Assembly (NCBI GenBank): GCA_017517035.1
Contig: JAFXAN010000121.1
Span: 17,736 to 81,735, forward strand
From: Clostridia bacterium
Lineage (GTDB): Bacteria > Bacillota > Clostridia > Oscillospirales > CAG-272
DNA length: 64,000 nt
Reading direction: 5' to 3'
The notes below the pieces were generated by a model. That model had not been told where the DNA came from. It did no database searches and was given only the letters and a program-made list of their open reading frames with translations. A program made the translations under genes and the position numbers. How positions within the stretch are numbered: position 1 is the stretch's first letter; each line of letters begins with the position of its first letter. Shown piece by piece: positions 3,364-64,000 of the stretch.

Positions 3364-3371
3364 GGTGACTT

Positions 3372-11134: not shown

Positions 11135-11193
11135 TTTATCCTCCAAAATAAATTTGGCAGACTTTATTCAAAGCCTGCCGAATTTATGGGTAA

Positions 11194-15593: not shown

Positions 15594-15713
15594 GGCTTTC
15601 TCTCGGAAAGCCTTCCTTTCTTTGGGAATTGTGGCAGGTTTTGCTCGCAAAATCGATGGTGTTCAGCCATCGAAAGCCACAAAACCATGTCTGAAAATTT
15701 ATTTTCAGACTTC

Positions 15714-33031: not shown

Positions 33032-33064
33032 AATAAATCCTCCAAAATTTTCTTCTGTTTTTTC

Positions 33065-33093
33065 ATTATAACATATTTTTTTGTATTTTGCAA
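33065..33093 (-). promoter_or_regulatory. promoter candidate for the cohesin-like gene (TTGCAA-17-TATAAT, with TG-extended -10)
   Basis: Complement of 33088-33093 and of 33065-33070, with an exact 17-nt spacer. Confidence 0.45.
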
Positions 33094-33118
33094 TAGGAAT
33101 ATTGATTTTTGATAAAAT

Positions 33119-33143
33119 CGGCTGATCCAAAAGCAGATCAGCC
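33119..33143 (-). terminator. hairpin after GH26 paralog 1
   Basis: 9-bp stem CGGCTGATC/GATCAGCCG. The U-tract on the minus strand is weak. Confidence 0.4.
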
Positions 33144-33150
33144 GAAAAAA

Positions 33151-34188: not shown

Positions 34189-34200
34189 AGCTATTTCTCC

Positions 34201-35082: not shown

Positions 35083-35092
35083 TTTTCCTCCG

Positions 35093-37015: not shown

Positions 37016-37062
37016 TTTAAATCCTCCGTTTGAGACATAAATTGGATTATAAATACCAATAA

Positions 37063-37091
37063 AATTATACATTAATAAAAGTGAAATGTCA
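37063..37091 (-). promoter_or_regulatory. sigma-A consensus promoter candidate (TTGACA-17-TATAAT) for the paralog 2 / dipeptidase / paralog 1 operon
   Basis: Complement of 37086-37091 (TTGACA) and of 37063-37068 (TATAAT), with a 17-nt spacer. This lies about 48 nt upstream of the ATG at 37015. Confidence 0.55.
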
Positions 37092-37260
37092 AGTTTTGAA
37101 CCGTTTCTTTCTTTTTGAAAAATTAGTCGAAAGAAACAAAGTATGCTCTGATTTTTTATTGATATTTTCCCGTTTTTTCAATCAAAAATCCTGCCCAAAA
37201 GCAATTTTTGTAACTTTTTAACATTATATGCTCGACTTATTTGTTTGTTTTTACAAAAAT

Positions 37261-37283
37261 ACGCGGAATCAAAGATTCCGCGT
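37261..37283 (-). terminator. rho-independent terminator after paralog 3
   Basis: 10-bp stem ACGCGGAATC/GATTCCGCGT with a 3-nt loop, followed by ATTTTTGT on the minus strand. Confidence 0.7.
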
Positions 37284-37294
37284 ATATAATTTTA

Positions 37295-39265: not shown

Positions 39266-39279
39266 TTTTCCTCCAAAAA

Positions 39280-40758: not shown

Positions 40759-40774
40759 TTCTCTTCTCCGTTTC

Positions 40775-42190: not shown

Positions 42191-42207
42191 TAAAGAAGCC
42201 TCCGTTT

Positions 42208-44208
42208 TTATTTTTCGGAATTCCATCTTTCCATAAGGTCTTCTCTTGAAACAACGATATCATCATACATGAGAACATCTGCCATTCCAAGCTCTGCTAT
42301 AGAGAGTTTATTAGTCCATGTGAGGAAATAGCTGACTTTCATGCCGTCCTTTGCCATGCGCTTGATGGACGCAAGAAGATCCTCATTTGTCCAGAGATAA
42401 TATGTGTTACCCTCCGCATCGGTTGCAGCAAGACCGCCGCCCGAAACAGGGCCGACCTCGGTAAGTGCAGCAGGCTTGCCTGTTGACATCACCTTGGTAT
42501 ATGAATCCTTGTTATTTATTTCATAGTTACCGTTTGTATACCAGTCACATCCGACGATGTCAACATATTCGTCGCCGGGATAAGCATAAAGAACATCTGC
42601 GATAGAACCCGAATTATAGTTCGGGGCATATACCCAGATAGCATCTTCAATTCCCATTTCTTCTGTTACAACCTTATAGAAGAACTTCCAAAAATCAGCC
42701 ATTGTCTCCTGGGAAAGGTTGAACCCGCCCTGACCGACGCACCACCAGAACCAGCCACCGTTCATCTCATGGAGCGGTCTGAACATAAAGGGGATTCCGT
42801 TATCGTCAAGTGCTTTAATGAGCATGAATGTGGATTCAAGGGTCTTGCGGAGTGCCTTATTCATCTCGGTGCCGTCCGTGAGCATATCCTTTGCCATCGC
42901 TTCACTATCGAGATGACCTCTGTACCAAACCTTATCCTCTGCATTGTTAAGAGGATTTGCCATGTGAATACAAACGCTGACGATACCGCCGTTTGATACA
43001 TGCTCCGCACATTCAGCCACATTTGCTGAAAGGTCATAGGGAGAAATTGTATCGCCCTTGCTATAAAAATCATAATAGACACTGTGACGACCGATATCTA
43101 CCTCAATGATAGCAGGGCTTTGACCTCCGCTTGCCTCATAAACCGCATCAACCGTCGAAGCTACCCAGCTCTTGCCCTTAAAGCCCTTATAGGCATGAGT
43201 TCCCGAAATCACCATTTCATCATTCTCATAGGCCTCTGCGAAAAGGTCAAGAAGATCCTGCTTTGTATAAGGAACTGTATAATTCAGCGAGCCTTCGATA
43301 TTATTCTTTGCATCAATGGAAAGCGTGTCTCCGCTATGCGCTCTATCCTCGGTATAGCCGAGAATTTCGGTCAAAAATGCGTCATAAGCATTATTTACCG
43401 TTGTGAAGCTACCATCAATATAGACATTTCCGTTTTCTATTTTTACAGAATATCCGTCGGGATCAATATTTGATGCGGTGAGGACGATATAATGCCCATC
43501 GCCCATCTCTTCTGCAACGGGAATATCAATTCCAACAAGCTTTTCCTTCATCAGAAGAGAAAGCTCCTCAGCCATTTTATGAGTTTTTATGTTGGAATGG
43601 TCGACTGTGACCTTATCTGTGCAATAAACAGAAAACTCGGAAATATCAACACCGTCAATTGTAAGCTTATCGAAAATAAAGCTTTTAAGGAAAGTATATC
43701 CCTCGTCGGCCGGAACAAGAATAGATTTATTCTCTCCGTAAATAAAGCATTTGACAAACAGCGCTGCTGCCTCACCCAGTGCCTCATCCGAGCCACCGAG
43801 AATATAAATCTTTCCGTTTTTCTCTGCGATCTTGAAATCATAATATCCAAGTCCCTCTGAAAGCGAAGATGAGTTTGCGTCCTTTGTCACGCCAACAACG
43901 ATCTCCTTAGATGAGCTTCCGCTTGCATTCCAGTCGGTAACAAGATCAAGCTTAATGCCTGTTTTTTCAAGAACAGCCATTCTGATCTCAGTTGCAGCAT
44001 TCTTGACAGCATCTCTTTCAGTGTCGGAGCGGATGATTCTATATGAGGAAACATCGATATCCTCATTCACATCAATATCCGCCTTTTCACCGTTAAGATC
44101 TGTAAGAGTTATTGTTGCATCCGATGTGGGTGCGCTGATGCTTTCTCCGCATGATATGAGAACCAAAGCCAAAACAGATATAAAAACTAAACAAACCAAT
44201 CTTTTCAC
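42208..44208 (-). CDS. lipoprotein: two GH20b-like N-terminal modules plus a GH26 domain (paralog 6)
   Basis: GTG start after a GGAGGTG Shine-Dalgarno. Lipobox LALVLISCG. GH26 blocks HMANPL, MFRPLHEMNGGWFWW, WVYAPN, DIVGCDWY and ALTEVGP. The catalytic domain is very similar to that of paralog 5. Confidence 0.8.
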   Translation of the reverse strand: MKRLVCLVFISVLALVLISCGESISAPTSDATITLTDLNGEKADIDVNEDIDVSSYRIIRSDTERDAVKNAATEIRMAVLEKTGIKLDLVTDWNASGSSSKEIVVGVTKDANSSSLSEGLGYYDFKIAEKNGKIYILGGSDEALGEAAALFVKCFIYGENKSILVPADEGYTFLKSFIFDKLTIDGVDISEFSVYCTDKVTVDHSNIKTHKMAEELSLLMKEKLVGIDIPVAEEMGDGHYIVLTASNIDPDGYSVKIENGNVYIDGSFTTVNNAYDAFLTEILGYTEDRAHSGDTLSIDAKNNIEGSLNYTVPYTKQDLLDLFAEAYENDEMVISGTHAYKGFKGKSWVASTVDAVYEASGGQSPAIIEVDIGRHSVYYDFYSKGDTISPYDLSANVAECAEHVSNGGIVSVCIHMANPLNNAEDKVWYRGHLDSEAMAKDMLTDGTEMNKALRKTLESTFMLIKALDDNGIPFMFRPLHEMNGGWFWWCVGQGGFNLSQETMADFWKFFYKVVTEEMGIEDAIWVYAPNYNSGSIADVLYAYPGDEYVDIVGCDWYTNGNYEINNKDSYTKVMSTGKPAALTEVGPVSGGGLAATDAEGNTYYLWTNEDLLASIKRMAKDGMKVSYFLTWTNKLSIAELGMADVLMYDDIVVSREDLMERWNSEK

Positions 44209-51276: not shown

Positions 51277-51424
51277 ATATCATAAAAGCCCGAAAAGTCA
51301 ATATATTTTATACTTTTTACATTTTGTTCAAAACATATTATGGTGCAAAAAATATTTTTTGTAACACATTAAATGTCTTTTTTTGAGCAAATTAAGCACA
51401 GACAAAGTCAAAGCAAAGGAAGTA

Positions 51425-52639
51425 ATGAAAATGCAAGCAAAAATTTTAAAAATAACATCGGTCACTCTGACCGTTCTCATGGTTATGACCGCTTTTATAA
51501 TGGGAATAGCGGATCTGCTTGTTCCCGAAAGACTGTCATATCATTTCGGAGAGAAACCAACGGAAAATGTATTCATTAAAATTGAAACAGACAATGCTCT
51601 TCCCGTTTCCGCAACACCTGAGCACAAGATGACTTTGAAGGGCGAAGCAAAGCTCTTCGGATTTCTGCCGCTGAAAAAAGTCAGTATAGATTATTATGAT
51701 GATCTTTGCCTTTATGTTGGCGGTTTTCCCTTCGGTGTTAAATTCTATACCGAAGGAATAGTTGTTGTGGATATTTCAGCGGTTGAAACAGAAAACGGCA
51801 ATTCAAATCCCGCACATGATGCCGGGATCAGAGAAAACGACATAATAATAAAATGCAACGGCGAGCCGCTTTCGGGCGCAGAATCACTTACAAAAATGAT
51901 AGAAAGCTGTAATGGTAATTCTCTCACACTCACCTGCAAAAGAAACGGAGAGGAATTTGAAGCCTCGGTAACTCCTGTGAAATCCAAGGAAGATGGACTT
52001 TATAAGACCGGAATGTGGATAAAGGACAGCGGAGCCGGAATCGGCACAGTTACCTATCTCTCCCCCGATGACAACAGCTTTGGTGGGCTTGGTCACGGAA
52101 TTTGCGATCCCGTGAGCGGTGCTCTTATGCCCATGGAAAAAGGGAATCTGATGGGTGTGAGCATAAACGGTGTAAAAAAAGGGCTTGTGGGAGAGCCTGG
52201 TGAGATCAAAGGATTTTTTGACGGAGAAAAGCTTGGTGCCGTGCTGAAAAACACAAATTGCGGTGTTTTCGGGATCTATACAGAAAAACCGAGAGAAGCT
52301 CAAACACTTCTCCCGATAGGACTAAAAAGTGAAATACAAAGCGGAAAGGCAACCGTTATCTGTACTCTCGATGAGAGCGGTGCAAAGGAATATGAAATAG
52401 AGCTTTCCGCCATCAACTATTCCGCCTCGCAAGAATCAAATAAATGCTTCACCGTAAAGGTGACAGACCCTGCTCTACTTGAGATCACAGGCGGCATAGT
52501 TCAGGGCATGTCAGGTTCACCCATCCTGCAAAATGGCCGAATTGTGGGAGCTGTGACACACGTATTTGTGAATGATCCAACAAGAGGTTATGGCATATTT
52601 ATAGAAAATATGCTTGCCGAAGCGGAGAAAATCAAATAG
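51425..52639 (+). CDS. spoIVB: stage IV sporulation protein B (S55 signalling serine peptidase)
   Basis: N-terminal TM helix, a PDZ region, and a peptidase S55 C-terminus with the GMSGSPI catalytic box. The ATG at 51425 follows AAGGAAG. Confidence 0.9.
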   Translation: MKMQAKILKITSVTLTVLMVMTAFIMGIADLLVPERLSYHFGEKPTENVFIKIETDNALPVSATPEHKMTLKGEAKLFGFLPLKKVSIDYYDDLCLYVGGFPFGVKFYTEGIVVVDISAVETENGNSNPAHDAGIRENDIIIKCNGEPLSGAESLTKMIESCNGNSLTLTCKRNGEEFEASVTPVKSKEDGLYKTGMWIKDSGAGIGTVTYLSPDDNSFGGLGHGICDPVSGALMPMEKGNLMGVSINGVKKGLVGEPGEIKGFFDGEKLGAVLKNTNCGVFGIYTEKPREAQTLLPIGLKSEIQSGKATVICTLDESGAKEYEIELSAINYSASQESNKCFTVKVTDPALLEITGGIVQGMSGSPILQNGRIVGAVTHVFVNDPTRGYGIFIENMLAEAEKIK

Positions 52640-52650
52640 CAAAAATGCTC
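52607..52650 (+). repeat. 44-nt core repeat, copy 1 (spoIVB last codons, stop codon and left terminator arm)
   Basis: AATATGCTTGCCGAAGCGGAGAAAATCAAATAGCAAAAATGCTC recurs at 61494-61537 with 2 mismatches, counted by eye. Confidence 0.85.
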
Positions 52651-52678
52651 ACTTATATTTCATAGGTGAGCATTTTTT
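52641..52678 (+). terminator. spoIVB terminator hairpin
   Basis: Stem AAAAATGCTCAC / GTGAGCATTTTT followed by a T-run. It overlaps the 3' end of the convergent AraC gene. Confidence 0.7.
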
Positions 52679-53460
52679 ATGTATTCAGACGGACTGCAAC
52701 CAATATTATTTTTAAAAACTCTGCTGAAATAATACACATTTGAAAAACCGGCAATTTCAGATATTTCGTTTATATTATAATGCCTTGTATTGATCAATTC
52801 GCATGCGTATTGCAGTTTTTTTGACATGATATATTTTACAGGAGTTATGCCAAATCGTTTTTTAAATAACTTTGTCATATATGTGTGGCTTATATTGCAC
52901 AAATTTGCAAGGTGGTAACAGTCAATATTTTGATTAGTAAAGTTGTTGTCAATATATTCTATAGCAGGTTGGATTTTACTATATATGTGTGAGGGCAGAT
53001 AGTTTGTTTCTGCCTTTGAAATTTCAGCAAAAATATCATACAAGACAGACATAGACTTATAATAATAACCGTCAGGTTTATAATACCAATATTTTTGCAG
53101 TTTCTGAAACAGTTGTTTTAATATCAGGGAATTGTCATATTTTTTTACTGTTATCTCATTAGGAAGCGGAGAATCTGAGGTGAAACCTATATTAATGCTT
53201 TCTCCCTGTTCAATAACTTCTGCAGTATAGAGAGGAGCATACCTGAAATGAGCCGGATTTGGTAAAAAACGTAGGCAGTCAGCTTTTTCTGTTACTTGTT
53301 TTCGGTCAAAGGTAATAATAGCTTCTCCGGAGAGTTTATACAATAACTGATAATGAAAAACATAATCAGTTTCAAATTTTGTGTAACTTCCTTTTTTATT
53401 ACCGATACGGTGGTTAACGAAAATAATATCGTTTATTTTAATCTTGTCATGTTGAATCAT
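52660..53460 (-). CDS. AraC family transcriptional regulator (cupin sensor)
   Basis: C-terminal HTH ISEIAGFSNVYYFSRVFKNNIGCSPSEY. The ATG at 53460 follows GAGGAGGAG. It is divergent from the GRE gene. Confidence 0.85.
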   Translation of the reverse strand: MIQHDKIKINDIIFVNHRIGNKKGSYTKFETDYVFHYQLLYKLSGEAIITFDRKQVTEKADCLRFLPNPAHFRYAPLYTAEVIEQGESINIGFTSDSPLPNEITVKKYDNSLILKQLFQKLQKYWYYKPDGYYYKSMSVLYDIFAEISKAETNYLPSHIYSKIQPAIEYIDNNFTNQNIDCYHLANLCNISHTYMTKLFKKRFGITPVKYIMSKKLQYACELINTRHYNINEISEIAGFSNVYYFSRVFKNNIGCSPSEYIKNAHL

Positions 53461-53609
53461 ACTTCTCAACTCCTCCTCAAGATTATATCATACTTTTAAA
53501 ACATATGCAATATTTTTGTTTGAAAAAGTATAAAATTATGGTTTTGTTTATTTACTTATTTAAATAATTGTGATATCCTTAATTTGTCAATAATACAGGA
53601 GGTGATTTT

Positions 53610-55748
53610 ATGACAGAACGAATTGAGAATATGGTAAATTATGTTTTAAAAAAGACAATTTATCCCGAACCAAGAGAAATCGAATATGACAGAGCAGATT
53701 ATTTATTGTCCGAAAGATGTAGAGAAACTAAAAGATTATGTGAGTATATGCTTGCACAAGAGGTTGCAATTCCTGACGGAGCATTAATGGTTGGTATGAT
53801 AAGGTTTGACAAATGCCCATATCCTTCGGATTTTATGAAGAAAAAAGGATTTAAGCATACCAAAGAAATTCAGCAACATTTCTTTGATCTCCAAAATGGA
53901 CCTTTTGATTACTTTAAATTTTGGGGATGGCAACACGCAACCGCAGATTTTGGCAAAATCATTGAAGTAGGTATAGAAGGAATAAAAGAGCAGATATACA
54001 AATCATTGGAAAAGTTTTCTGAAGATGAAGATAAAACTGATTTCTTAAATGCATGTCTTATGGTATGTGATGGTATAATTGCATGGGAAAACAAATGCGT
54101 AGATGAGTGCTACAACAGATCATTGACAGAGAACACCCCCGAAAGAAAACAACAGCTTTTAAAAATGTCTGAAAACTTGAAGCGTGTGCCACGTTATCCT
54201 GCAACAAGCTTTTATGAAGCAATACAGAGCTTGTATTTTTGCTTTGACTTTTTATCTGACAGTCTTGGGTTGCCTGACCGTTGGTTATACAAATATTATA
54301 AGCAAGATATAGAAAATGGAAGCATAACAGATGAGTTTGCAAAGGAACTCCTGCAGGAGCTTTTCATCCGCGTTCAGAGTTGTACACCTGTTGAGAGTGC
54401 TGCTTTTACAAAAGGTGGAGAAAGTAATTTTTCTCTTGGCGGATATACGGCAGACGGAGAGGATGGATATAACGAATTATCAGAACTTATTTTAACCTCG
54501 CTTCTGGAACTGCCGTTATACATACCACAGGTAACCTTCAGATGGACAAAAAAAACTCCATTTGATACTTTTTACCACGTTATGGATTTGGAAAGAAAAG
54601 ACCCTCATCAAAGAATTGCCTTTGTAAATGACGATGTAAAAATTGAATGTCTTATGAAAAATTGCAATGTATCATGGGAAGAGGCCATAAGTTATGTAAC
54701 AATAGGTTGCAATATGATTGCTCTATCAGGCGGATTATGGTACGGAACAGGATATGCAAATCAGGTTAAACCGTTAAACGATACTCTGTATAACAGGAAA
54801 GAAGATATAATAAAAGCAAAAAACTTTGATGAATTTTTTGAAATATACAAAGACGAGCTTCACAAACATCTAACAAGAGATATGGAAGTCGGAAATATGC
54901 TTCATGCTTATGCATCAAAGGATGAATGTATACTCGGAAGCCTTTTTATGACAGGCTGTATAGAAAAAGGATTGTCAATGCATAAAGGCGGTGCCTCCGG
55001 TTTTTCTGAAATGGGCGGTGGTGCAGGTCTTATGTGTACAATAGATTCTCTTGCAATTATTAAACAGTTCGTATTTGATGAAAAAATTGTATCTGCAGAA
55101 GAAATGCTGAATGCTCTGGAAAATAACTGGGATGGTTACGAACATCTTCACAGTATGATTTTAAAAAAAGGCAATTTTTTTGGCAACGACTATGAATTGT
55201 CAGACGAGGTTGCAAAAAGAGTTACAACAGCAATAAATGAGTTCGCAAAAGATAAAACCGATATATTCGGCAAACATTATATAGGTGTTGTTGCACCGGG
55301 ATACAGAGAATATCATAAAGTCTTTGGAGCGGTTACAGGTGCTACTCCCGACGGAAGATTTAAAGGAGAGCCTTTCAAAACTATAGGAGTAGGTCAGACA
55401 GAAGGCAGGGACAGAGAAGGTCTTACAGCTCTTTTAAATTCTGTTGCAAATTATGATCCCAGCCGTCACTTTGCAGGAGTTACCGTAACAAATATAAATG
55501 TGGATTCTGCCTTGATTGATAATGATGAAAATTTTAAAAAGACTGCAATACTAATAGAAACATACTTCAAAAACGGGGGTGCGCAAATTCAAATTAACTC
55601 TGTTTCAGCAGAAGAATTGATTGCTGCAAAAGAAAATCCCGAAAAGTACAAAAGTTTGAGAGTAAGAGTCAGCGGTTTTTCAGATTATTTTGTAAATTTA
55701 TCTGAGCCACTTCAGGATAACATTATTAAAAGAACATCATTAAAGTAA
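53610..55748 (+). CDS. glycyl radical enzyme, PFL2/glycerol-dehydratase-like fold, short form (712 aa)
   Basis: C-terminal glycyl-radical motif [11 protein letters not shown] (Gly689, codon 55674-55676). Cys loop VTIGCNM (Cys367, codon 54708-54710). PFL2-type N-terminal blocks ([30 protein letters not shown]). Confidence 0.85.
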
Positions 55749-55774
55749 ATTGTTGTCCCCTATTGACAACAGTC

Positions 55775-55906
55775 GTGAGCGGTTCTCCAATAATTCAGAA
55801 CGGAAGACTCATCGGAGCCATAACTCATGTCATGGTCAACGACCCAAGCACCGGCTACGGGATTTTTATTGAGAATATGCTGGCAGCGGTTGATGAAATC
55901 AAATAA
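55775..55906 (+). pseudogene. orphan 3' fragment of a spoIVB allele (43 codons plus stop)
   Basis: In-frame reading gives [43 protein letters not shown]. It aligns with the last 43 residues of the intact SpoIVB (about 12 differences by eye). No upstream coding continuation is visible. Confidence 0.85.
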
Positions 55907-55910
55907 AACA

Positions 55911-55942
55911 AGTGGGGCTTCACAACTGTGAACTGCCCCACT
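55911..55942. terminator. strong hairpin after spoIVB fragment 2 (bidirectional position)
   Basis: Stem AGTGGGGC...GCCCCACT with an inner TTCACA/TGTGAA extension. It sits between the fragment's stop and the stop of the convergent PocR-AraC gene. Confidence 0.6.
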
Positions 55943-55950
55943 TATCTATT

Positions 55951-56760
55951 TTAATTTATATTTTGTGTTTTTCGATATTGCGTTGGAGTAATGCCATTCT
56001 TTTCTTTAAATAATCTGCAAAAATATGCGTAATTTTCTATGCCCGCATTCCGTGATATCATATAAACAGGATCTTTTGTTTTAAGAAGAAGCTCCTTTGC
56101 GCAGTTCAATCTCTGCTCAGTAATGTACATATTTACTGTGCTACCCAAATTATCATTAAAAGCCTTATACAGACTGTTTTTTGATACATGAAACCTCGAG
56201 CACAAATCATTGATGGTCAGTTTTTCACATAAATTCGCCTCTATAAAATTTATAATTTCACTTGTAAGAGGGTCATACACAATCTGAATTGCACTGTCAA
56301 ATATAACAAAGGACAAAAGGTCATATAATGACATCAATTTTTCCTCTGTTATAAACGGCAGTTCGTTATATAGTTTCTGTAATTTTTCAGTTGTTTTATC
56401 ATCTATGTCAGAAGGAAGATGAGGGACTATGGGGGAATTTGAAGAGCGAATTCTTCCCATAATCGCAAAGCAAACGATAGTATCATTTTTGATAATCGGC
56501 ATTGCAGCATCATAAAGCCCCGCAAAGCAAATGTGCTTCTCAAGTTTCATTGAATTTCTGCATTTTTCCAATATTTTCATATCACATTCACGGCAATGAA
56601 GTCTTTCTGTCTTTTGCAAAACAGAGCAATAGTCATAAGCTTTTTTGCAATTTGCCAGCAGGTTATATTTTGTATCAAGTACGGATATTGAAACACCTGT
56701 AAGGTCATATATATTTTTAATAATTCTGTTTAACAGCACAGTATTATATTTTATAATCAT
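55951..56760 (-). CDS. AraC family regulator with a PocR-type sensor domain
   Basis: The N-terminus (CSVLQKTERLHCRECDMKILEKC...HICFAGLYDAAMPII...IMGRIR) matches the PocR ligand-domain pattern. A C-terminal AraC HTH follows. Confidence 0.7.
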   Translation of the reverse strand: MIIKYNTVLLNRIIKNIYDLTGVSISVLDTKYNLLANCKKAYDYCSVLQKTERLHCRECDMKILEKCRNSMKLEKHICFAGLYDAAMPIIKNDTIVCFAIMGRIRSSNSPIVPHLPSDIDDKTTEKLQKLYNELPFITEEKLMSLYDLLSFVIFDSAIQIVYDPLTSEIINFIEANLCEKLTINDLCSRFHVSKNSLYKAFNDNLGSTVNMYITEQRLNCAKELLLKTKDPVYMISRNAGIENYAYFCRLFKEKNGITPTQYRKTQNIN

Positions 56761-56912
56761 AAGAACACCTCTGCTAAAATTATACCACAGTCGGGAAGAT
56801 ATTGCAATATATAAAGAAAAAAATTCATTTACAAAAACGCATTAAATGTTGTATAATATGTGTAATCTGACAGGAGTTTTTATTCCGTCAGTAAAAATCA
56901 AGAGGTAAAACA

Positions 56913-57761
56913 ATGCATGTTTTATATTTGTTAATTATCATTTTCGGCATTTCCGGACAAAATGTTTTCAAAAAAATGTATACAGAAAAAACCGGAGGGG
57001 GCGGCTCTATGACCTTCGCCGCTCTCACATCGTTTTTCTCGATGTTGTTTTTTATCGTTACATCAACAAAATTTCTTTGGAATCCGAAAATCATTCCATA
57101 TGCAATTACCTTTGCAGTGTCTTTTGCAGCCGCTACATTGTTCGGACTGCTTGCTGTTGCCAATGGCCCGTTATCCCTCTCGTCGCTCATGATTTCATAT
57201 TCTCTTATGCTTCCAACCTTTTACGGAATCATTTTTCTAAAGGAAACAATGAGCGTATATTTTATTATCGGACTCTGTCTGCTTGCTGTTTCACTTTTCC
57301 TTGTAAACAAGAAAAATGACAAGTACCCTGTTACACCGAAATGGCTTTTATTTGTTTTTCTTTCGTTTTTAGGCAATGGACTTTGTTCAACCTTTCAGAA
57401 AATGCAGCAGCTTACGTTTGACAGTGAATACAAAAATGAATTTATGATACTTTCCCTTGTAATCGTTACTTTAATTTTTATAGCGGCAGTGCCGATATCA
57501 GACAAATCCAATTTTATGGAATATCTGTATCATGCTCGGTTTACTGCTGTTCTTTCAGGCGCTATGAATGGTGTCGTTAATTTACTTGTTATGGTATTAT
57601 CGGGAATGATGGCAGTATCCGTTATGTTTCCGTTGATTTCTGCAGGCGGAATTATTGTTACATATATCATTTCAAAGATTTTTTATAAAGAAAATCTTAC
57701 AAAAATACAGTTTGTAGGCTTCTTAACAGGGCTTGCATCCATAGTATTTTTAAATATTTAA
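56913..57761 (+). CDS. DMT-superfamily (EamA-like) 10-TM transporter
   Basis: 282-aa, highly hydrophobic protein with two-fold 5-TM organisation. AAGAGG Shine-Dalgarno. Confidence 0.6.
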   Translation: MHVLYLLIIIFGISGQNVFKKMYTEKTGGGGSMTFAALTSFFSMLFFIVTSTKFLWNPKIIPYAITFAVSFAAATLFGLLAVANGPLSLSSLMISYSLMLPTFYGIIFLKETMSVYFIIGLCLLAVSLFLVNKKNDKYPVTPKWLLFVFLSFLGNGLCSTFQKMQQLTFDSEYKNEFMILSLVIVTLIFIAAVPISDKSNFMEYLYHARFTAVLSGAMNGVVNLLVMVLSGMMAVSVMFPLISAGGIIVTYIISKIFYKENLTKIQFVGFLTGLASIVFLNI

Positions 57762-57781
57762 AACTTAAAGGAGAAGATTTT

Positions 57782-58990
57782 ATGAGTTATTCACCTTATA
57801 TTACCGTTGCTGCATCAAATTCAATATTCAACGAAAATGATGACATAGATTTTGTTTGTTCCGGAAAAAACGATGAGCTTGTCATAAATCAAGCAATCAA
57901 TGCCGCCGCAGAATCAAAAAAAGGCATTTATTTTCTGAATGGCAATTATTCGATCGATGGGTTTTATGATTTCGGTGACGGTGGACCTATGGCAGCAATT
58001 CGGACACCTGCACTTTATAAAGAGCTGGAGCTCATTGGACAAACCTCTCCCTTTACGCAGAACCATGAAGGAGTTGAGTTCGACGTGTCCGAAGAGGCAC
58101 TCGCCACGATAGAAAACGGTGAATACTCGGTTTTTCGTACCCAATGGAAGGAAAACGGGCTTTACAGCGGCTCTATATTGAAGCTTGAAAATTTTGTATT
58201 AGCACTTGCCCATAATCAAAAGGCTGTCCGTTGCATTGATCTTCGCAGATGCGACCGTGTTCAAATGAAAAACGTCTTTCTTAGCGGAAAATCCCAAAAT
58301 ACATATCTTGGAGTTGCCGATCGTGCGGTAGAGGGATGCATTGGTTTGACGATGACCGACGGAAGCAATAACTTTATCGTACGCTATGATAACGTTTCAG
58401 CATCTGATTTCTATGAGGGAATACAGGTAGGCGGTGAACACGTTGTTATGATAAATTGCGCTGCTGTACATAGCGTTTATGGCTACACTTTCGGCAACTA
58501 CGGTTTTCATTGCGGTTACAACCATCCTATAACGATGATCAACTGCTGCGACGAGAGAAATGTAAATTTACCTTTGTTTAATCTGTGCGGTGATCATGCA
58601 CGCGATGGCAGTATTCTGATTGGCGGACAGGAAGTTTCTATGATAAGCTTTAACATCGAGCGTTTAGCTTCTCAAACACCCGGTGGAAAGCTCGGTGATG
58701 CCATGCGTGAGATTCACCCGGGAGCTTTTTGCGGAAGAATTGAATACACTCTTCAGCCTGATTGGAACCATACCAATGAAACAAATTTTAAGCTTTTTGA
58801 AAACGGCTCGGGCGTAGGATTCCGCACAATCAATATGACTCACAAAACTGTTTGCAGCACTGCAGAAAGATTGAGCTATTATCCATCCTTGGGACAGCAG
58901 ATTTTCGATACTGATTTAAACAAATTATTGATTTGTGTCGACGCAGATACAAAAAAATGGGTCGATGCCAACGGTTGTGAGGTCGATTGA
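57782..58990 (+). CDS. cytoplasmic right-handed beta-helix (pectate-lyase-superfamily-like) protein
   Basis: The N-terminus (DDIDFVCSGKNDELVINQAINAAAESKKGIYFLNGNYSI) resembles the Pectate_lyase_3 entry motif. Cys/Asn-rich repetitive coils follow. The C-terminal motif LGQQIFDTDLNKLLICVD...KKWVDANG resembles the tail of beta-helix depolymerase/tail-fibre-like proteins. No signal peptide. Confidence 0.45.
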   Translation: MSYSPYITVAASNSIFNENDDIDFVCSGKNDELVINQAINAAAESKKGIYFLNGNYSIDGFYDFGDGGPMAAIRTPALYKELELIGQTSPFTQNHEGVEFDVSEEALATIENGEYSVFRTQWKENGLYSGSILKLENFVLALAHNQKAVRCIDLRRCDRVQMKNVFLSGKSQNTYLGVADRAVEGCIGLTMTDGSNNFIVRYDNVSASDFYEGIQVGGEHVVMINCAAVHSVYGYTFGNYGFHCGYNHPITMINCCDERNVNLPLFNLCGDHARDGSILIGGQEVSMISFNIERLASQTPGGKLGDAMREIHPGAFCGRIEYTLQPDWNHTNETNFKLFENGSGVGFRTINMTHKTVCSTAERLSYYPSLGQQIFDTDLNKLLICVDADTKKWVDANGCEVD

Positions 58991-59098
58991 CAAAAAACAA
59001 AAACATCCCTTGTTTTTCAAGTTTATGAGTACACCTATCGTAAACACGTTTTAGGATATTCAATAAAAATATCTTTACAAAGCTATAATTATAAAAAA

Positions 59099-59130
59099 GG
59101 CAACATCACGTCAAACGACATGATATTGCC
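59099..59130 (-). terminator. hairpin terminator after the AraC gene 59137-59922
   Basis: 14-bp stem GGCAATATCATGTC/GACGTGATGTTGCC on the minus strand (two G-U pairs), followed by a T-run. Confidence 0.45.
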
Positions 59131-59136
59131 TTTATT

Positions 59137-59922
59137 TTATATTCGCTTGCTTTTTGCATATTGCGTGGGAGTCATGCCGGTGTGAGAACGAAACACTTTA
59201 CAAAAGTATGCCGCATCAAAAAACGACAGATACTCTGCAATTTCGCTCACGGTCATATTTGTCGATTCGATCAGATATGCGGCTTGTCTCATTTTCATCT
59301 CCGTTCGATATTGTATCGGAGAAATCCCAAGCTTCTCAAGGAAGCTTTGACGCAGTAAGCTTGTGCTTACCGCGCAGTTTTTTGCGATTTGCTCAATCGT
59401 AATCTTTTCGTTTTTTTGTAAAAACTCACACGCGCGTTTCACGATTTGGGTATGCTCGTCACTATCGTTTTTAACCGATTCCACCATACTGTCCAAAAGC
59501 AACAAAAAGGAGCCTTTGTTATACAACTGTGTCCGTGTGGTATATTTGTTTTCGTCAGATAAGTTGCGAAATTTTTCATAGCATGCAACGTCAGCCGATT
59601 CGGATAAAATCATCGGTGAATATGACAAAGAACCGTTCTCGTTCGTGTCAAAGCAAATAAGATAATCATCGGCTGTATCCGAAAAAAAAGCCTCATATCG
59701 AGAATGCTTCGGTAAAAAAACAAGATTTCCGGCGTGAGCAGACACCGTCCCCTGTTCAGTTAAAAAATCTACTCTTCCACTCACAAGAAGCATTAACCCA
59801 AAATCCGGTCTCGGATCGTTCAAATAGCTGTATTTACTTTTATACCAGTGTTGCTTCAGCACCTTCGTGACACGAAAATCAACATCGGAGCAAAACCATC
59901 TCAGTACATTTTCCTTATCCAT
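59137..59922 (-). CDS. AraC family transcriptional regulator (cupin sensor)
   Basis: C-terminal HTH VSEIAEYLSFFDAAYFCKVFRSHTGMTPTQY. It is divergent from the GH30 gene. Confidence 0.85.
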   Translation of the reverse strand: MDKENVLRWFCSDVDFRVTKVLKQHWYKSKYSYLNDPRPDFGLMLLVSGRVDFLTEQGTVSAHAGNLVFLPKHSRYEAFFSDTADDYLICFDTNENGSLSYSPMILSESADVACYEKFRNLSDENKYTTRTQLYNKGSFLLLLDSMVESVKNDSDEHTQIVKRACEFLQKNEKITIEQIAKNCAVSTSLLRQSFLEKLGISPIQYRTEMKMRQAAYLIESTNMTVSEIAEYLSFFDAAYFCKVFRSHTGMTPTQYAKSKRI

Positions 59923-60056
59923 ACGCACCTCCCGCTTATATTATCCTTATTATACCATGAAATATTGAAAAATACAATAATTAAAACAAAAAATCTAATG
60001 TTTGTTGATCATAATCGTAGTATAATATTAAAAAATACAATTATGGAGGAATCAAT

Positions 60057-61406
60057 ATGATTGGAAAAATTATATTTACAGATCAAAATCATTCCCTTTT
60101 TGAACGTGAAATATTTGCTTCACAATACGTTCCCGGCGCAGAGATACTTCAGGTTGCCGATCATGGTTGCAGCGGATTTATGGGGTTTGGTGTTGCCATT
60201 ACGCCTTCATCCTGCTATGAACTAAATTTGATGGATCCTTTGAAGAGAAAAGAGCTTCTGCGCCACATCTATTCAAAGAATGAACTGGGGTTGTCCGTCG
60301 GTAGAATTTGTGTTGGTTCAAGTGATTATTCCCCCGAGATATATTCGTATGACGATCATCCCTTTGACACATCTCTTGAGCATTTTTCGGTTGAGCGTGA
60401 TGAAAAATACATCATACCGATCATCAAGGAAATCATTGAAATCAATCCCGATATATATCTTTTCGCTTCCCCGTGGAGCCCTCCCGGATGGATGAAGACG
60501 GGAGGCTTGATGTGCGGAGGCTATATGCGTGAGCAGTATGTGGATTGCTATGCCGACTATATCGTCAGATTTATCAAGGCGTACGCCGGATACGGCATTC
60601 GAATTTCGGCGATCACGCCGCAAAACGAGCCTGAAACACAGCAAGGCGGAAAAATGCCTGCTTGCATCTGGCATCCCGAAACGGAAGCACGCTTTATCAA
60701 GATCTTGCGTAAAAAGATCACAGAGGAAGCTCTTGACACAAAGATATGGATGTATGACCACAACTTTAGAGGTACGGACAGAGTACTTTGGTCTCTGCAA
60801 AATTGCAAGGGTTTACCTGAAGCTTGCGATGGAATCGCTTTTCATTACTATGCAGGAACGATAGAGCAGACGAAGATCGTAAAAGACGCATTCCCGAACC
60901 TCCCTCTGCACTTTACCGAGGGCGGTCCGAGACTGACCGATAATTATGATACCGATTGGTGCAAATGGGGGCTTATGATGATCAAAGCGTTGAAAGCGGG
61001 ATATCGTTCGTTCACGGGGTGGAATCTTATGCTTGACGAAACGGGCGGTCCGAATGTTGGTCCATTTTTGGGCATATGCGGCGGTTTAATAACAAGAGAT
61101 TCAAGAAACGGCGAGCTGACCTACAGCGGTCAGTACAAAGCCTTTTCCCATATCGCACCTTATATAACCTCAAACTCACAGATTTATCCTATCTCAACAA
61201 GCAACGCTTATAATCTGAATATGAGCAGTTACCCTAAATATCCAAGAGAGATCGAGGGCGTATTGATCGATAATCGGGACGGCAAAAAAATTGCGGTGAT
61301 CATCAATCCTAACAGTTATGGATGTCAGGCACAGATGAAAATTGACGATAAGCTTTGGTATATGGAATTGTATGCAGACAGCATATCTACCATAGAAATA
61401 GAATAA
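60057..61406 (+). CDS. GH30-family glycoside hydrolase (glucosylceramidase-like), cytoplasmic
   Basis: GFGVAIT, GSSDYS, ASPWSPPGWMKT, ITPQNEP (acid/base), FHYYAG and HFTEGG (nucleophile) blocks. No signal peptide. Confidence 0.85.
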   Translation: MIGKIIFTDQNHSLFEREIFASQYVPGAEILQVADHGCSGFMGFGVAITPSSCYELNLMDPLKRKELLRHIYSKNELGLSVGRICVGSSDYSPEIYSYDDHPFDTSLEHFSVERDEKYIIPIIKEIIEINPDIYLFASPWSPPGWMKTGGLMCGGYMREQYVDCYADYIVRFIKAYAGYGIRISAITPQNEPETQQGGKMPACIWHPETEARFIKILRKKITEEALDTKIWMYDHNFRGTDRVLWSLQNCKGLPEACDGIAFHYYAGTIEQTKIVKDAFPNLPLHFTEGGPRLTDNYDTDWCKWGLMMIKALKAGYRSFTGWNLMLDETGGPNVGPFLGICGGLITRDSRNGELTYSGQYKAFSHIAPYITSNSQIYPISTSNAYNLNMSSYPKYPREIEGVLIDNRDGKKIAVIINPNSYGCQAQMKIDDKLWYMELYADSISTIEIE

Positions 61407-61442
61407 CAAATCAATGATTCATCTATGCAGTATCATCATTTT

Positions 61443-61526
61443 ACTCACGTTTTCGTAAATGACCCGACCAGAGGATATGGGGTATTTATTGAGAATATGC
61501 TTACCGAAGCGGAGAAAATCAAATAG
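61443..61526 (+). pseudogene. orphan 3' fragment of spoIVB (27 codons plus stop)
   Basis: In-frame reading gives THVFVNDPTRGYGVFIENMLTEAEKIK*. Compared with 52556-52639 there are about 13 of 84 nt differences by eye, 11 of them synonymous. A terminator-like hairpin homologous to the spoIVB terminator follows. Confidence 0.85.
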
Positions 61527-61537
61527 GAAAAATGCTC
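61494..61537 (+). repeat. 44-nt core repeat, copy 2
   Basis: AATATGCTTACCGAAGCGGAGAAAATCAAATAGGAAAAATGCTC, compared with 52607-52650. Confidence 0.85.
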
Positions 61538-61539
61538 GT

Positions 61540-62403
61540 CTATCCAATTATAGGCGGGCATTTTTTATATTTTCCGGGAGTGATACCATAATGCTTTTTG
61601 AACCGGAAGATAAACGCGGAGCAATCGGAAAAGCCGCTTGAGTAACAGGCTTCAGTAACAGAACTGCCGTTTTGCAGTTGTTTTCGAGCATTCTCCAAGC
61701 GTCTCTCTGTGAGATAATTATGAATGCTTTTCCCTGTGTACTTGCGGAAGGTTTGTGTTAGGTATGTAACGCTGCAACCACAGTGAGTTGCCAGCTTGTC
61801 CAAACCTGAAAAATCAGGGAAATCATCTTCAATTTTGCGCATTGTCTCGTTCACAACAAATGGAACAGCAGGCGCCTGTGTATAGCTCTTTTGGGACAAA
61901 TAGTGCTTGTTGCAAATATCGAGCGCTTCTATCAGTTTTGCAAATATGAGAATGTCGCAAGATTTAGAATCGATATCGTCTTTTATAATATCAAGCAGCT
62001 CTTCTGCGAGCATAATTAGTTTTCTCTTTTCTTTTTCGGGGAGTTTAATCAGATTTATTTTGTTATTGCTGTTGTCGAGAAAAGGTGCGATGATGTTTTT
62101 ACTTGTGGTGAAGAAATTATCAAAAAAATCAACGGGAATCAGAAAAGACAGAAATTTGTATTCGCAACAATCGGGGAATCTGCCGAAATGCACCTCGTTA
62201 GGACGAAATATTACGATATCCCCACGTTTGGGGAATATCAAATTATCTCCGATTACTGCTCCACAGTTGTCGGTAAGAACAAGACTGATTTTGTAGTCGT
62301 CATATATCGTTATGACTGTGTCACCGGAGAAGGTGTCGTTGTTACTGTATCCCAGGCTGATGGGCTTTGTAAATTTGTCGATGTAAATTTTTTTATAATG
62401 CAT
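61540..62403 (-). CDS. AraC family transcriptional regulator (cupin sensor)
   Basis: C-terminal HTH VTEACYSSGFSDCSAFIFRFKKHYGITPGKY. Its stop abuts the hairpin that follows spoIVB fragment 3. Confidence 0.85.
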   Translation of the reverse strand: MHYKKIYIDKFTKPISLGYSNNDTFSGDTVITIYDDYKISLVLTDNCGAVIGDNLIFPKRGDIVIFRPNEVHFGRFPDCCEYKFLSFLIPVDFFDNFFTTSKNIIAPFLDNSNNKINLIKLPEKEKRKLIMLAEELLDIIKDDIDSKSCDILIFAKLIEALDICNKHYLSQKSYTQAPAVPFVVNETMRKIEDDFPDFSGLDKLATHCGCSVTYLTQTFRKYTGKSIHNYLTERRLENARKQLQNGSSVTEACYSSGFSDCSAFIFRFKKHYGITPGKYKKCPPIIG

Positions 62404-62536
62404 CAAACCACCACTTTCGGAATTTTGTATTTTTTATGTTATTTTCAACTATATTTTGGCAAATATATGCGATATTATAAGTATAGCACTATATTTGATA
62501 TCTGTCAATACATAACAAAATGTGAGGAGAGAAAAT

Positions 62537-62767
62537 ATGTTTAAAAACGGGGACGTAATATGTTTTTTTGGAGATAGCATAACGGCAAACGGACTGTGGA
62601 TGGCTGAGGTTTATCAAACTCTTAGGAAAAAATATGGTGTAAAGTGTTATAACTGCGGTGTTTCCGGAGCGACAGCACAAAACGCGCTGTTGTATCTGCA
62701 TAGTCAATGTTTGATTTTTAATCCTGACTATGTTGTAATGAGCATGAGTACACATTTGAAAGTATGA
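62537..62767 (+). pseudogene. truncated SGNH/GDSL hydrolase remnant (76 codons)
   Basis: Block I (FFGDSIT) and block II (CGVSGATA) are present. The ORF stops at NPDYVVMSMSTHLKV*, before blocks III and V. Its stop lies inside the Shine-Dalgarno region of the next gene. Confidence 0.6.
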
Positions 62768-62780
62768 AAGGAGAAAGATT

Positions 62781-64000
62781 ATGAGTAATTTAGAGAAATT
62801 AGGCAATAAGTGTTGTGATTATTTTAAAATGTTAGAGCAGGTTTCATACGGAGACGACCATCCGATAAAGGTTTTGTTAAACCAATATGATGCAGAGCAC
62901 CCGGGATTGAACTCTTTTGAATTAAAAGCGGTACAATATGATATTCTGGCTGAAAACATTGATGTAGTCGTTTTTGAAGAAACTCCGTTTTATTTTATAA
63001 ACAATATTACACTGTGTCCCGGTTTAATTGGTAATTCCTGTGCCGATTGGCTGCATAGAAGAAATTATCATATATATGAAGATGCTGATCCTGAAACATG
63101 GAGAAAATTTAACAAGCAACAACGTTTAAGGGTGTTTTTGTGTTGCGGACCATACACCGATAATGTTCATTACACAGTGCCTGTTGAAAATATTGTAAAA
63201 TATGGCATGAAGAAATACTATTCAGACGCAGAAAAAGCAAAAATCGGAGCAACGAAAGAAGAGTTAGATTTCTTAAATTGTGCGCAAAGAGGATTGCTGG
63301 CCGCAAAACGTATTTGCGAACGCTACGCAGCAGCAGCGGAAGAAAAACTAAAGAATATTGCGGATTCAAAGCTTCGCAAAAATATGGAGATGTTAATCGC
63401 ATCAGCAAAACATGCTCCGTGGGAGGCACCCAAAACCTTTTTTGAGGGACTCAACACCTGTTGGTTTGCGCGTAATGTATTAGGTGCAATGGAAGGCGTT
63501 GGTAATTCTACGCTTGGAAGAGTTGACTACATACTCTACGATTTATACAAAACAGATATTGAAAACGGCAATTTAACAAAAGATGAAGCTTATGAGCTTA
63601 TCAAGCAGTTTATGCTGTTAGGCGATATGCAATATGATAAGGATACCATTGTTAAGAGTGGCAATGATCACGAGTTGGAAATGGGAATCTGTATCGGAGG
63701 ATGTGACACGGAAGGAAATCCGGTATATAATGAATTGACTAGTATGTTTATTCAGGCACAGTATGAATTGAAATGTATTTTCCCCAAAATACATGCTCGC
63801 TTTGGTTCTAATTCTCCAAAAGAATATCTCGAGGAGCTTTCGCAGGGATTTGTGAATGGACACAGCGCGATCGGCTTAAGCTGTGACGACGGTATTATTC
63901 CGGGTTTATTGCACGCAGGCAAGACAACTGAAGATGCGCGCAATTATGAAACCGTAGGTTGTTGGGAGAATAAGGTTGCAAGTAAAGAGTCTATGGCAGG
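62781..64000 (+). CDS. second glycyl-radical-enzyme-family protein (PFL2-like N-terminal 406 codons; continues past the window end)
   Basis: My own translation gives MSNLEKLGNKCCDYF...APKTFFEGLNTCWF...DIENGNLTKDEAYELI...EDARNYETVGCWENK. The Cys394-Trp-Glu396 loop is at 63960-63968. No stop codon occurs before 64000. Confidence 0.75.
   Translation, partial: MSNLEKLGNKCCDYFKMLEQVSYGDDHPIKVLLNQYDAEHPGLNSFELKAVQYDILAENIDVVVFEETPFYFINNITLCPGLIGNSCADWLHRRNYHIYEDADPETWRKFNKQQRLRVFLCCGPYTDNVHYTVPVENIVKYGMKKYYSDAEKAKIGATKEELDFLNCAQRGLLAAKRICERYAAAAEEKLKNIADSKLRKNMEMLIASAKHAPWEAPKTFFEGLNTCWFARNVLGAMEGVGNSTLGRVDYILYDLYKTDIENGNLTKDEAYELIKQFMLLGDMQYDKDTIVKSGNDHELEMGICIGGCDTEGNPVYNELTSMFIQAQYELKCIFPKIHARFGSNSPKEYLEELSQGFVNGHSAIGLSCDDGIIPGLLHAGKTTEDARNYETVGCWENKVASKESMA

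Follow-up and report, generated by a model that had tools for sequence, protein, structure and literature searches.

Why should the 3′ end of a single-copy sporulation gene occur three times in succession, with accessory genes filling the space between the copies? The question is raised by a 64,000-nucleotide stretch of DNA from a Clostridia bacterium (contig JAFXAN010000121.1, positions 17,736 to 81,735), hereafter the window, in which an intact spoIVB gene is followed by two orphan copies of its own end. We consider it very probable that the spoIVB 3′ region is an attachment site for elements moved by large serine recombinases (LSRs), and that the window holds an array of non-autonomous cassettes stacked at this site. 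What carries this reading is a junction fixed at one codon, a conserved foreign arm beside it, a reciprocal junction that adjoins LSR genes, and a strain polymorphism that breaks at the same TG dinucleotide. The LSR acting in this species, the route by which the cassettes entered and the order of events are, by comparison, what we infer from these observations.

Searching the window with the 418-residue SpoIVB protein (tblastn) recovered both of the orphan copies that an earlier note on this DNA had described. Copy 2 was matched at 55775–55903 (residues 376–418, 72% identity, E = 2e-16) and copy 3 at 61443–61523 (residues 392–418, 92.6% identity, E = 1.6e-11). Both copies are in frame and in the orientation of spoIVB, and the three-copy family was also recovered by an independent repeat search of the window (repeat D1). 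We refer to the three ends as E1, the end of the live gene, E2 and E3 (Table 1). The counts reported for copy 3 proved exact when repeated: it differs from copy 1 at 13 of 84 nt, 11 of the changes being synonymous and two non-synonymous, and the 44-nt core shared by 52607–52650 and 61494–61537 holds two mismatches. Nucleotide homology between these two copies extends to 52716/61602, so that it takes in the terminator and reaches inside the convergent AraC genes at their 3′ ends. Copies 1 and 2 differ at 46 of 129 nt, with 24 synonymous and 11 non-synonymous codons. Ratios of non-synonymous to synonymous substitution (dN/dS, Nei-Gojobori) are 0.02 for copies 1 and 3 and 0.06 for copies 2 and 3, while synonymous sites are saturated between copies 1 and 2. 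Ratios so far below 1 bear out the suggestion that the fragments were once translated as the ends of functional spoIVB genes, and we therefore conclude that the orphans diverged under selection as working gene ends. The hairpin reported after each copy is likewise real by its folding energy (−19 to −21 kcal/mol, z below −6.4). One coordinate must be corrected: copy 2 had been placed from 55775, but homology starts at 55778, with a Ser codon, and the additional GTG codon belongs to a foreign sequence.

This Ser codon is the catalytic one (SGSP), and copy 2 starts at its first base, with the foreign sequence, which we term the P arm, directly 5′. The crossover TG at copy 2 (55776–55777) lies inside the GTG codon of the arm, and P arm and E2 together make up an attR-type junction. 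A SpoIVB scan taking one genome per species yielded 80 related loci, all from metagenome-assembled genomes of Oscillospiraceae or Eubacteriales, the closest two with SpoIVB 84% and 83% identical to that of the window. In 12 of these 80 loci, one or two orphan SpoIVB ends lie downstream of the gene in the same orientation. Both in-frame translation and nucleotide alignment place the start of 13 of these orphans, and of window copy 2, at the same Ser codon, and these share the same upstream arm (consensus AAA..TGTTGTCCcTacTTGAcCACACTCgTG), where intact spoIVB genes read ...GGCGGCATnGTnCAGGGnATG. Arrays of three spoIVB-end copies, like that of the window, are found in L062, L066 and L070 (loci and contigs are given by L numbers where they need to be told apart). 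A further 15 metagenome contigs carry the P arm joined to SpoIVB homology beginning at residue 376 or 377, giving 29 junctions between P arm and Ser codon. In a weight-matrix scan of 1.34 Mb of related loci, the P arm was found only downstream of spoIVB; in the window it occurs once, against 0.06 occurrences expected by chance. We also considered a second attachment site at the THV residues with which window copy 3 and copy 2 of L070 begin, and rejected it: the upstream sequence is not conserved and the two boundaries lie one codon apart. These two starts are treated here as independent truncations.

The same position is marked by a difference between strains. A protein search identified contig L081 as conspecific with the window (SpoIVB 98% identical), and the two share 97–98% nucleotide identity in both flanks. 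They are identical over 129 consecutive nt up to ...CAGGGCATG; then, from 52511, 47 of 129 nt differ. Divergence thus sets in with the Ser codon, from its first base, and the left breakpoint is nucleotide-exact. Judged from this alignment and the junctions above, the 2-bp crossover would be the TG at 52509–52510, in the Met codon that precedes the catalytic-Ser codon (52511–52513). The L081 insert is 3.6 kb long (a cupin-AraC regulator, a BNR sialidase-like gene and a major facilitator superfamily (MFS) transporter), against 12.6 kb in the window, so the variant site that the earlier note had suggested looking for exists in a conspecific strain, with different cassette content. Past the inserts the two align again, at 98.4% identity, from within the 3′ end of a DeoR gene situated just outside the window, and the right junction of the window allele is an ordinary one that leaves 36 codons of a truncated glycyl-radical activase gene. 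At the right end of the L081 insert, directly after the MFS gene, there is a 17-mer (12246–12262, GGAATCATCCAAGGAAT) of which 15 positions agree with the stretch of spoIVB immediately preceding the crossover; local alignment showed no wider homology, and its likeness to spoIVB is not substantiated.

The reciprocal junction was found by scanning metagenomes with a degenerate arm pattern and filtering the matches with a position weight matrix and by junction class. In at least 23 contigs, the part homologous to SpoIVB stops exactly at residue 376, where it is fused to a reciprocal arm, GTAGTGAGTTATAATAGGGACAAC, here called P′. The attL-type sequence reads ...CAGGGnATG/GTAGTGAGTTATAATAGGGACAAC (the slash marks the junction), spoIVB being interrupted by the P′ arm at the same TG. 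The sites can therefore be written side by side: attB, in live genes, as ...CAGGGnATG/TCnGGC; attR as ...CACACTCGTG/TCnGGC (n = 29); and attL as ...CAGGGnATG/GTAGTGAG... (at least 23 contigs). The TG is common to attB (A-TG-TC), attL (A-TG-GT) and attR (G-TG-TC or G-TG-AG). Together with the attP-like sequences described below, all four types of serine-integrase site are present, and they share one crossover position. In L162, three tandem LSR genes (Resolvase, Recombinase, Zn_ribbon_recom and DUF4368 domains) lie on the reverse strand from 264 nt away from attL. The attL-type junction of L152 is followed by a TraG/VirB4-type ATPase and that of L191 by ParB and Bro-N genes, and L127 has a weak LSR-like match near attL. 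Against the NCBIfam Ccr models, which have cut-offs of 700–900 bits, the L162 enzymes score 43–72 bits, and they fall likewise far below the cut-off for XisF; on these scores they class as generic LSRs and not as members of the Ccr family. Neither the P arm nor the P′ arm was found in IMG/VR, which therefore gives no evidence for a phage carrier. The proposal of serial site-specific insertion by DNA that brings a surrogate gene end, with attL/attR-like duplication, is thus supported by the fixed Ser-codon junction with its conserved foreign arm across species, by the breakpoint and different cassette content of the conspecific strain, and by a reciprocal junction that LSR and conjugation genes adjoin.

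The metagenome scan also returned about ten imperfect palindromes of 50 nt that join the P arm to a second arm and are attP-like. Such palindromes, with both arms, stand just after the spoIVB stop in several loci, L081 included. Those with 23-nt arms are in L081 (8940–8988), L029 (11027–11075), L046 (10967–11015), L050, L062 (11226–11275), L021, L167 and L125, and the palindrome of L081 folds at −33 kcal/mol. Many have a centre other than TG and so may be inactive. The palindromes that follow the stop also resemble bidirectional terminators.

Several related loci, the window not among them, have a composite arrangement after the stop: a palindrome, a spacer of ∼40 nt, and a P-like arm fused to reverse-complemented spoIVB, the piece of spoIVB being the 17–20 nt just upstream of the crossover. 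Further coordinates for composite sites are L022 3225–3271 and 3310, L046 12942 and L062 11315. We could not derive this combination of a palindrome and an inverted short B site from canonical LSR reactions. In L050, an insertion of ∼110 nt (∼11060–11175), which may be a small non-autonomous insertion element, divides one of the P-like arms into two parts, GTTGTCCCTATTC and ATAACACACTACTC. In L179 (arm at 5812), L175 and L143, what adjoins the P′ arm is not spoIVB, and the element family may have secondary or pseudo attachment sites there. Many chance matches to the degenerate pattern, and an unrelated tandem repeat in L188, were removed by the weight matrix and junction classes; that contig carries, at 3320–4250, tandem repeats of ∼63 nt with ATTGTCCTyTATTArCCACACTCCCAGAGTTACCACAGTCACT, unrelated to spoIVB.

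We then ask where the three ends came from. Over its first 96 nt, E1 is only 67% identical to the end of the conspecific L081, against 97% just upstream. With the live end of L043, whose SpoIVB is 44% identical overall, E1 shares 88% identity, and an internal 75-nt block (positions 21–96) reaches ∼95%. The last 42 codons of the live gene, including the one for the catalytic Ser, are therefore foreign and mosaic. E2 shares 91% identity with the live end of L086 and 87% with the live end of L002, two genus-level relatives of the window, and only 61% with E1. On this match with the window's own relatives, E2 appears to be the previous end of the gene, displaced by cassette 1. In its first 59 nt, E3 agrees at 95% with the live end of the distant L078 (overall SpoIVB identity 41%), and we read E3 as an older, eroded orphan, now without its arm and the first 15 of its codons.

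These observations can be joined into a model. Crossover would occur at the TG within the Met codon that immediately precedes the catalytic-Ser codon. Autonomous conjugative elements, as seen in the other metagenome contigs, would insert at this TG and split spoIVB. Cassettes without a recombinase would carry their own E copy, the last 42 codons and stop, at their left end and a P arm at their right end, so that their insertion would keep spoIVB intact while its catalytic C-terminus came to be encoded by the incoming E1. The earlier end would be pushed downstream as an orphan preceded by a P arm, as in the unit at 55752–55777 plus E2. Repeated insertion would then build up a tandem array in which E3 is an older orphan, and movement of the cassettes would depend on an LSR supplied in trans.

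Two routes of entry may be envisaged. In the first, direct capture, a circular cassette with a P/B′ site, made up of the arm, the TG and the cassette's own gene end, would recombine with attB, in the geometry of the staphylococcal cassette chromosome (SCC) and of the ssrA islands discussed below, where element site and target have an entire half-site in common. In the second, accretion, an integrative and conjugative element (ICE) would excise through the outer attR, taking with it the neighbouring unit of gene end, cargo and arm; the composite would integrate in a new host, and the ICE would leave through the inner attR while the unit remained. Canonical serine integrases recombine only attP with attB, or attL with attR together with a recombination directionality factor, whereas the Ccr enzymes are more promiscuous (PMC3783163). 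By this reasoning accretion would need canonical reactions only, while direct capture would need SCC-like behaviour, with which the three tandem LSRs of L162 are compatible. We hold any single route only tentatively, as somewhat short of an even bet.

Several results weigh against the attachment-site reading and should be set out together. Neither tblastn with the LSRs nor Pfam applied to the large open reading frames (ORFs) found an LSR or other recombinase, whether in the window or in the next 5 kb, so that for this species we assume action in trans. The earlier note's statement that no recombinase is visible in the window is confirmed by these searches. Its thought that the mobilising function might lie beyond 64 kb, be lost or be of an unrecognised kind fares less evenly: the function can now be given a class, the LSRs, proposed to act in trans, but none lies within those 5 kb. 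The contigs with LSR and ICE junctions come from more distant taxa, with SpoIVB 33–50% identical to that of the window, and no contig has an ICE body next to a P/B′ junction, so that the link between the P arm of the cassettes and the P′ arm of the ICEs rests on the palindromic sites. The search beyond 64 kb for a fourth spoIVB-end copy, which had also been suggested, found none, and no att site either, at the right edge of the variable region, where there is only the ordinary junction in the DeoR 3′ end. No P arm stands upstream of E3, whose site-specific origin we infer. The window array is identical in all contigs that carry it and may now be fixed and immobile. Given canonical pairing, direct recombination between P/B′ and attB would require SCC-like relaxed behaviour. 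Lastly, the E segments are mosaic, and homologous recombination also shapes them.

This last point gives the strongest of the rival explanations its footing. The spoIVB end could have served simply as an anchor of homology, at which foreign DNA, circular or linear, with a piece of the spoIVB end integrated by Campbell-type or double crossovers and so duplicated the end, with no site-specific recombinase. Mosaicism is what this would leave, both in the block of E1 that resembles L043 and in the 59 nt of E3 that resemble L078; the nearly identical core of copies 1 and 3 agrees with it, as does the start of copy 3 at THV without any arm. Homologous crossovers would scatter, however, and here 29 orphan junctions and at least 23 interrupted genes fall at one nucleotide position. 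The breakpoint between L081 and the window is exact, and a conserved arm with no homology to spoIVB stands at every junction. We therefore think this explanation unlikely, and disfavour homologous recombination as the main mechanism. As a secondary process, gene conversion between E copies probably takes place; the mosaic blocks of E1 and E3, with the core common to copies 1 and 3, indicate by their sequence that homologous exchange between gene ends also occurs.

A second alternative is that a unit of spoIVB end, AraC gene and catabolic gene was duplicated locally in tandem and diverged in place, with no mobile element. The units are indeed laid out alike, a gene end being followed by a hairpin and a convergent AraC regulator; enzymes like pyruvate formate-lyase (PFL) occur in units 1 and 3; and the homology between copies 1 and 3 runs on for ∼77 nt past the stop. 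Their cargo, on the other hand, is not paralogous: AraC1 and AraC4 are 27% identical over part of their length, the glycyl-radical enzymes (GREs) of units 1 and 3 (GRE1 and GRE3) give no match to each other, and beyond a shared helix-turn-helix domain the cargo proteins of the units are unrelated. Duplication in place also sits badly with an E2 nearer to the live ends of other species than to E1, a foreign arm conserved across species, and a conspecific strain with different content. We regard this as a very remote prospect.

Just as remote, in our estimation, is a system of the integron kind or one run by a tyrosine recombinase, in which the hairpins after the gene ends would act as attC-like sites. 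A strong hairpin after each copy, cassettes without recombinases and palindromic sites after the stop in related loci could all be taken in that sense, but the hairpins are 129 nt downstream of the junction, which sits at the Ser codon, and the three hairpins of the window are ordinary terminators, one of them of unrelated sequence. A motif scan found no tyrosine recombinase at any junction, its candidates in L011, L042 and L052 lying upstream of spoIVB and away from the cassettes, and the enzymes beside the reciprocal junction are serine recombinases. An integron would have IntI, an attI site and crossover at attC hairpins; by the motif scan no tyrosine recombinase is linked to a junction here, and the junctions are at the Ser codon. 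An assembly artefact, with chimeric or collapsed reads across spoIVB, which the earlier note had named as a possible refutation, can safely be discarded, since it has nothing but the metagenomic origin of the sequence in its favour, the copies differ by 15–35% and so are no collapsed repeats, and 9 contigs, drawn from 8 independent samples and from two assembler sources, show the same arrangement at 99.97–99.99% identity. Two other candidates, the template and variable repeats of a diversity-generating retroelement and a shufflon-like switch, were also rejected: the copies are direct repeats, their divergence is not adenine-specific, and the motif scan found no recombinase next to the array.

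Table 1. Features of the spoIVB array in the window (positions from the first letter of the window; ORF, open reading frame; PFL, pyruvate formate-lyase; GRE, glycyl-radical enzyme)
Feature	Position	Strand	Details and basis
Intact spoIVB (Peptidase_S55 and PDZ)	51383–52639	+	Complete 418-aa ORF, all domains present; Pfam
attB-type site inside live spoIVB	52488–52535	+	Strain comparison and site consensus
E1, live spoIVB end	52511–52639	+	Last 42 codons and stop, including catalytic Ser
Terminator-like hairpin after E1	52641–52677	.	Common to convergent spoIVB and AraC1; −19.2 kcal/mol, z −7.3
Cassette 1 cargo	52660–55748		AraC-family regulator 52660–53469 (−), PFL-like glycyl-radical enzyme 53610–55748 (+); Pfam
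P arm, element-derived half-site GTTGTCCCCTATTGACAACAGTCGTG	55752–55777	+	26 nt, non-spoIVB, ends in crossover TG
E2, orphan spoIVB end	55778–55906	+	42 codons and stop; tblastn
Hairpin after E2	55910–55943	.	−21.1 kcal/mol, z −6.5
Cassette 2 cargo, regulators	within 55951–61406		PocR-AraC 55951–56760 (−), AraC 59137–59928 (−); Pfam
Cassette 2 cargo, other genes			EamA-type transporter 56913–57761; 402-aa protein 57782–58990; GH30 hydrolase 60057–61406; Pfam
E3, 5′-truncated orphan spoIVB end	61443–61526	+	27 codons and stop, from THV; tblastn
Hairpin after E3, homologous to E1 hairpin	61527–61566	.	−21.2 kcal/mol, z −6.6; repeat D6
Cassette 3 cargo	61540–64000		AraC 61540–62406 (−), GDSL/SGNH lipase fragment 62522–62767, PFL-like GRE from 62782; Pfam

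The features of the array are collected in Table 1. The start of spoIVB is probably at 51431, from the 402-aa gene called in identical contigs; for both SpoIVB and AraC4, the starts called in those contigs differ from those of the longest ORFs. That the segments carry accessory catabolic genes under AraC control, as originally described, holds up by Pfam, which identifies the AraC regulators, the GREs and the GH30 hydrolase. Orthologous cassettes with an AraC gene and a GRE occupy the same position in L066 and L062 (34–45% amino acid identity) and in L167 (68% nucleotide identity). The 402-aa protein of cassette 2 has no Pfam match, and DNA like its gene (∼68% nucleotide identity over 440 nt) adjoins another P/B′ junction in L146. 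The GRE of cassette 3 is 742 aa long and runs beyond the window, the truncated activase and the right junction that is not an att site lying just past its end. At every P/B′ junction examined, accessory cargo lies upstream (AraC regulators, EamA transporters, sugar genes), and never recombinase genes.

Neither GRE of the window has a usable activase adjoining it. The P arm begins 3 nt past GRE1, and cassette 1 has no activase; the homologous cassette of L066 has one between GRE and arm. The activase gene after GRE3 (L211 17233–17343) is cut through its CxxxCxxC motif. The ORF at 62522–62767, which is called as 76 aa in identical contigs, matches only the N-terminal part of GDSL/SGNH lipases, and cassette 3 probably holds a fragment of a gene here.

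Outside the array, the window consists of ordinary core-chromosome genes (relA, recJ, dtd, cdaA, yabQ and others) together with glycoside hydrolases; tRNA and Rfam scans of the window found no tRNA gene and no Rfam family. On the reverse strand, 33151–44208 holds six GH26 (mannanase-family) genes, five of them in direct tandem and the one at 33151–34188 set apart by an M19 dipeptidase gene. A cohesin-domain protein is encoded upstream of them (32471–33154), and 25129–32127, also on the reverse strand, encodes a 2332-aa protein with BspA-type leucine-rich repeats (LRR_5, LRR_8) and an acetyl-xylan-esterase domain. An intergenic sequence of ∼136 nt between a radical-SAM gene and dtd (window 15577–15712) recurs at 96–100% identity at L211 20993–21128 and L081 16020–16067; the second copy lies ∼53 kb away, near HAD/ROK genes to the right of the array.

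We are not aware, from a full-text search of the literature, of any paper that pairs spoIVB with attB or with "serine recombinase", and the matches for integrase and conjugative terms were irrelevant by title or abstract. Thus we did not find this integration hotspot and attachment site described, and the host group, uncultured gut Oscillospiraceae and Eubacteriales, is one whose mobile-element biology is poorly known. The attachment-site reading would explain strain differences in carbohydrate and glycyl-radical-enzyme gene content beside a core sporulation gene. It would also mean that SpoIVB can have a xenologous catalytic end, a point of consequence for phylogenies and for annotation of the gene, and ICEs that split spoIVB at the catalytic-Ser codon offer a testable route by which gut commensals could lose sporulation or bring it under conditional control. 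The att sites and their LSRs are candidate genome-engineering tools for Clostridia.

A more far-reaching interpretation, which we regard as rather doubtful at present, is that the spoIVB end is a dedicated gene-capture platform of gut Clostridia, functionally like an integron or SCC. The enzyme would come from conjugative elements with several LSRs, recombinase-less cassettes in a large pool would pass between species with SpoIVB only ∼40–50% identical, and each cassette would bring its own catalytic C-terminal SpoIVB module. The same enzymes would make the gene-splitting insertions, with sporulation off until excision. If this were true, the catalytic Ser of an essential sporulation checkpoint protease would routinely be encoded by mobile DNA, and a single recombination site would tie the capacity to sporulate to accessory catabolism.

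It remains to place the array among known systems. One close parallel is with the ssrA islands of Dehalococcoides (McMurdie et al. 2011), which stand in tandem after an essential single-copy gene and are bounded by direct repeats of its 3′ end, with a conserved non-target motif directly upstream of each repeat; autonomous members have serine-recombinase genes on the reverse strand next to attL, while about half have no integration module and are read as cis-mobilizable, and the catabolic cargo is strain-specific (PMC3146451). Tandem gene-end repeats, an upstream foreign motif, reverse-strand LSRs at attL, members without recombinases and catabolic cargo are all found again at spoIVB. The differences are that the target is a tmRNA there and a protein-coding sporulation gene here, and that the repeat is 20 bp there and 129 nt here, comprising 42 codons and the stop with the catalytic Ser included. 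Moreover, the autonomous elements at spoIVB leave the gene interrupted, not restored, a recombinase is present in none of the 29 restoring cassettes, and the LSRs are not of the CcrB family by the NCBIfam cut-offs.

In staphylococci, SCCmec, pseudo-SCC and composite islands occupy the 3′ end of rlmH (orfX) and are moved by CcrAB or CcrC; an element-borne copy of the gene end keeps the reading frame, and tandem arrays include recombinase-less members mobilised in trans. The spoIVB site is alike in being, on our reading, an LSR hotspot in the 3′ end of a conserved gene, with a frame-preserving end copy and recombinase-less array members presumably mobilised in trans, and direct capture would call for the relaxed site pairing of the Ccr enzymes (PMC3783163). 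It differs in target gene and host clade, in a duplicated end that is far longer, and in the absence of resistance cargo. Of the features that define SCC and the ssrA islands, insertion at a gene 3′ end restored by an element-borne end and tandem gene-end repeats are both present, while a recombinase of the CcrA/B/C (or DsiB) family is not, the LSRs of L162 scoring as described above. The array is therefore SCC-like in its working and not an SCC element.

ICESt1 and ICESt3, at the 3′ end of fda in Streptococcus thermophilus, illustrate accretion and mobilisation between ICEs and cis-mobilizable elements (CIMEs), using tyrosine recombinases. There, att-flanked non-autonomous elements gather in tandem with an ICE at a gene 3′ end and can remain once the ICE excises, a logic that accretion at spoIVB would share, but the enzymes linked to spoIVB are LSRs and the ICE form disrupts its target gene. 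LSR-carrying elements inside the coding sequence of sporulation genes are known as well, namely skin in sigK (SpoIVCA) and SPbeta in spsM (SprA). Both of those genes are expressed in the mother cell, a terminal line in which excision is harmless, whereas spoIVB is expressed in the forespore in Bacillus subtilis. The contigs with a B/P′ junction resemble these cases in having LSR elements inside a sporulation gene; they differ from the window, in which spoIVB is intact, and cassettes with a surrogate end are no feature of skin or SPbeta. Four things set the spoIVB site apart from the known systems compared here: its target is the gene of a checkpoint protease expressed in the forespore, the duplicated segment of 129 nt takes in the catalytic Ser, the recombinases are outside the Ccr family, and disruptive and restoring insertions coexist at one crossover site.

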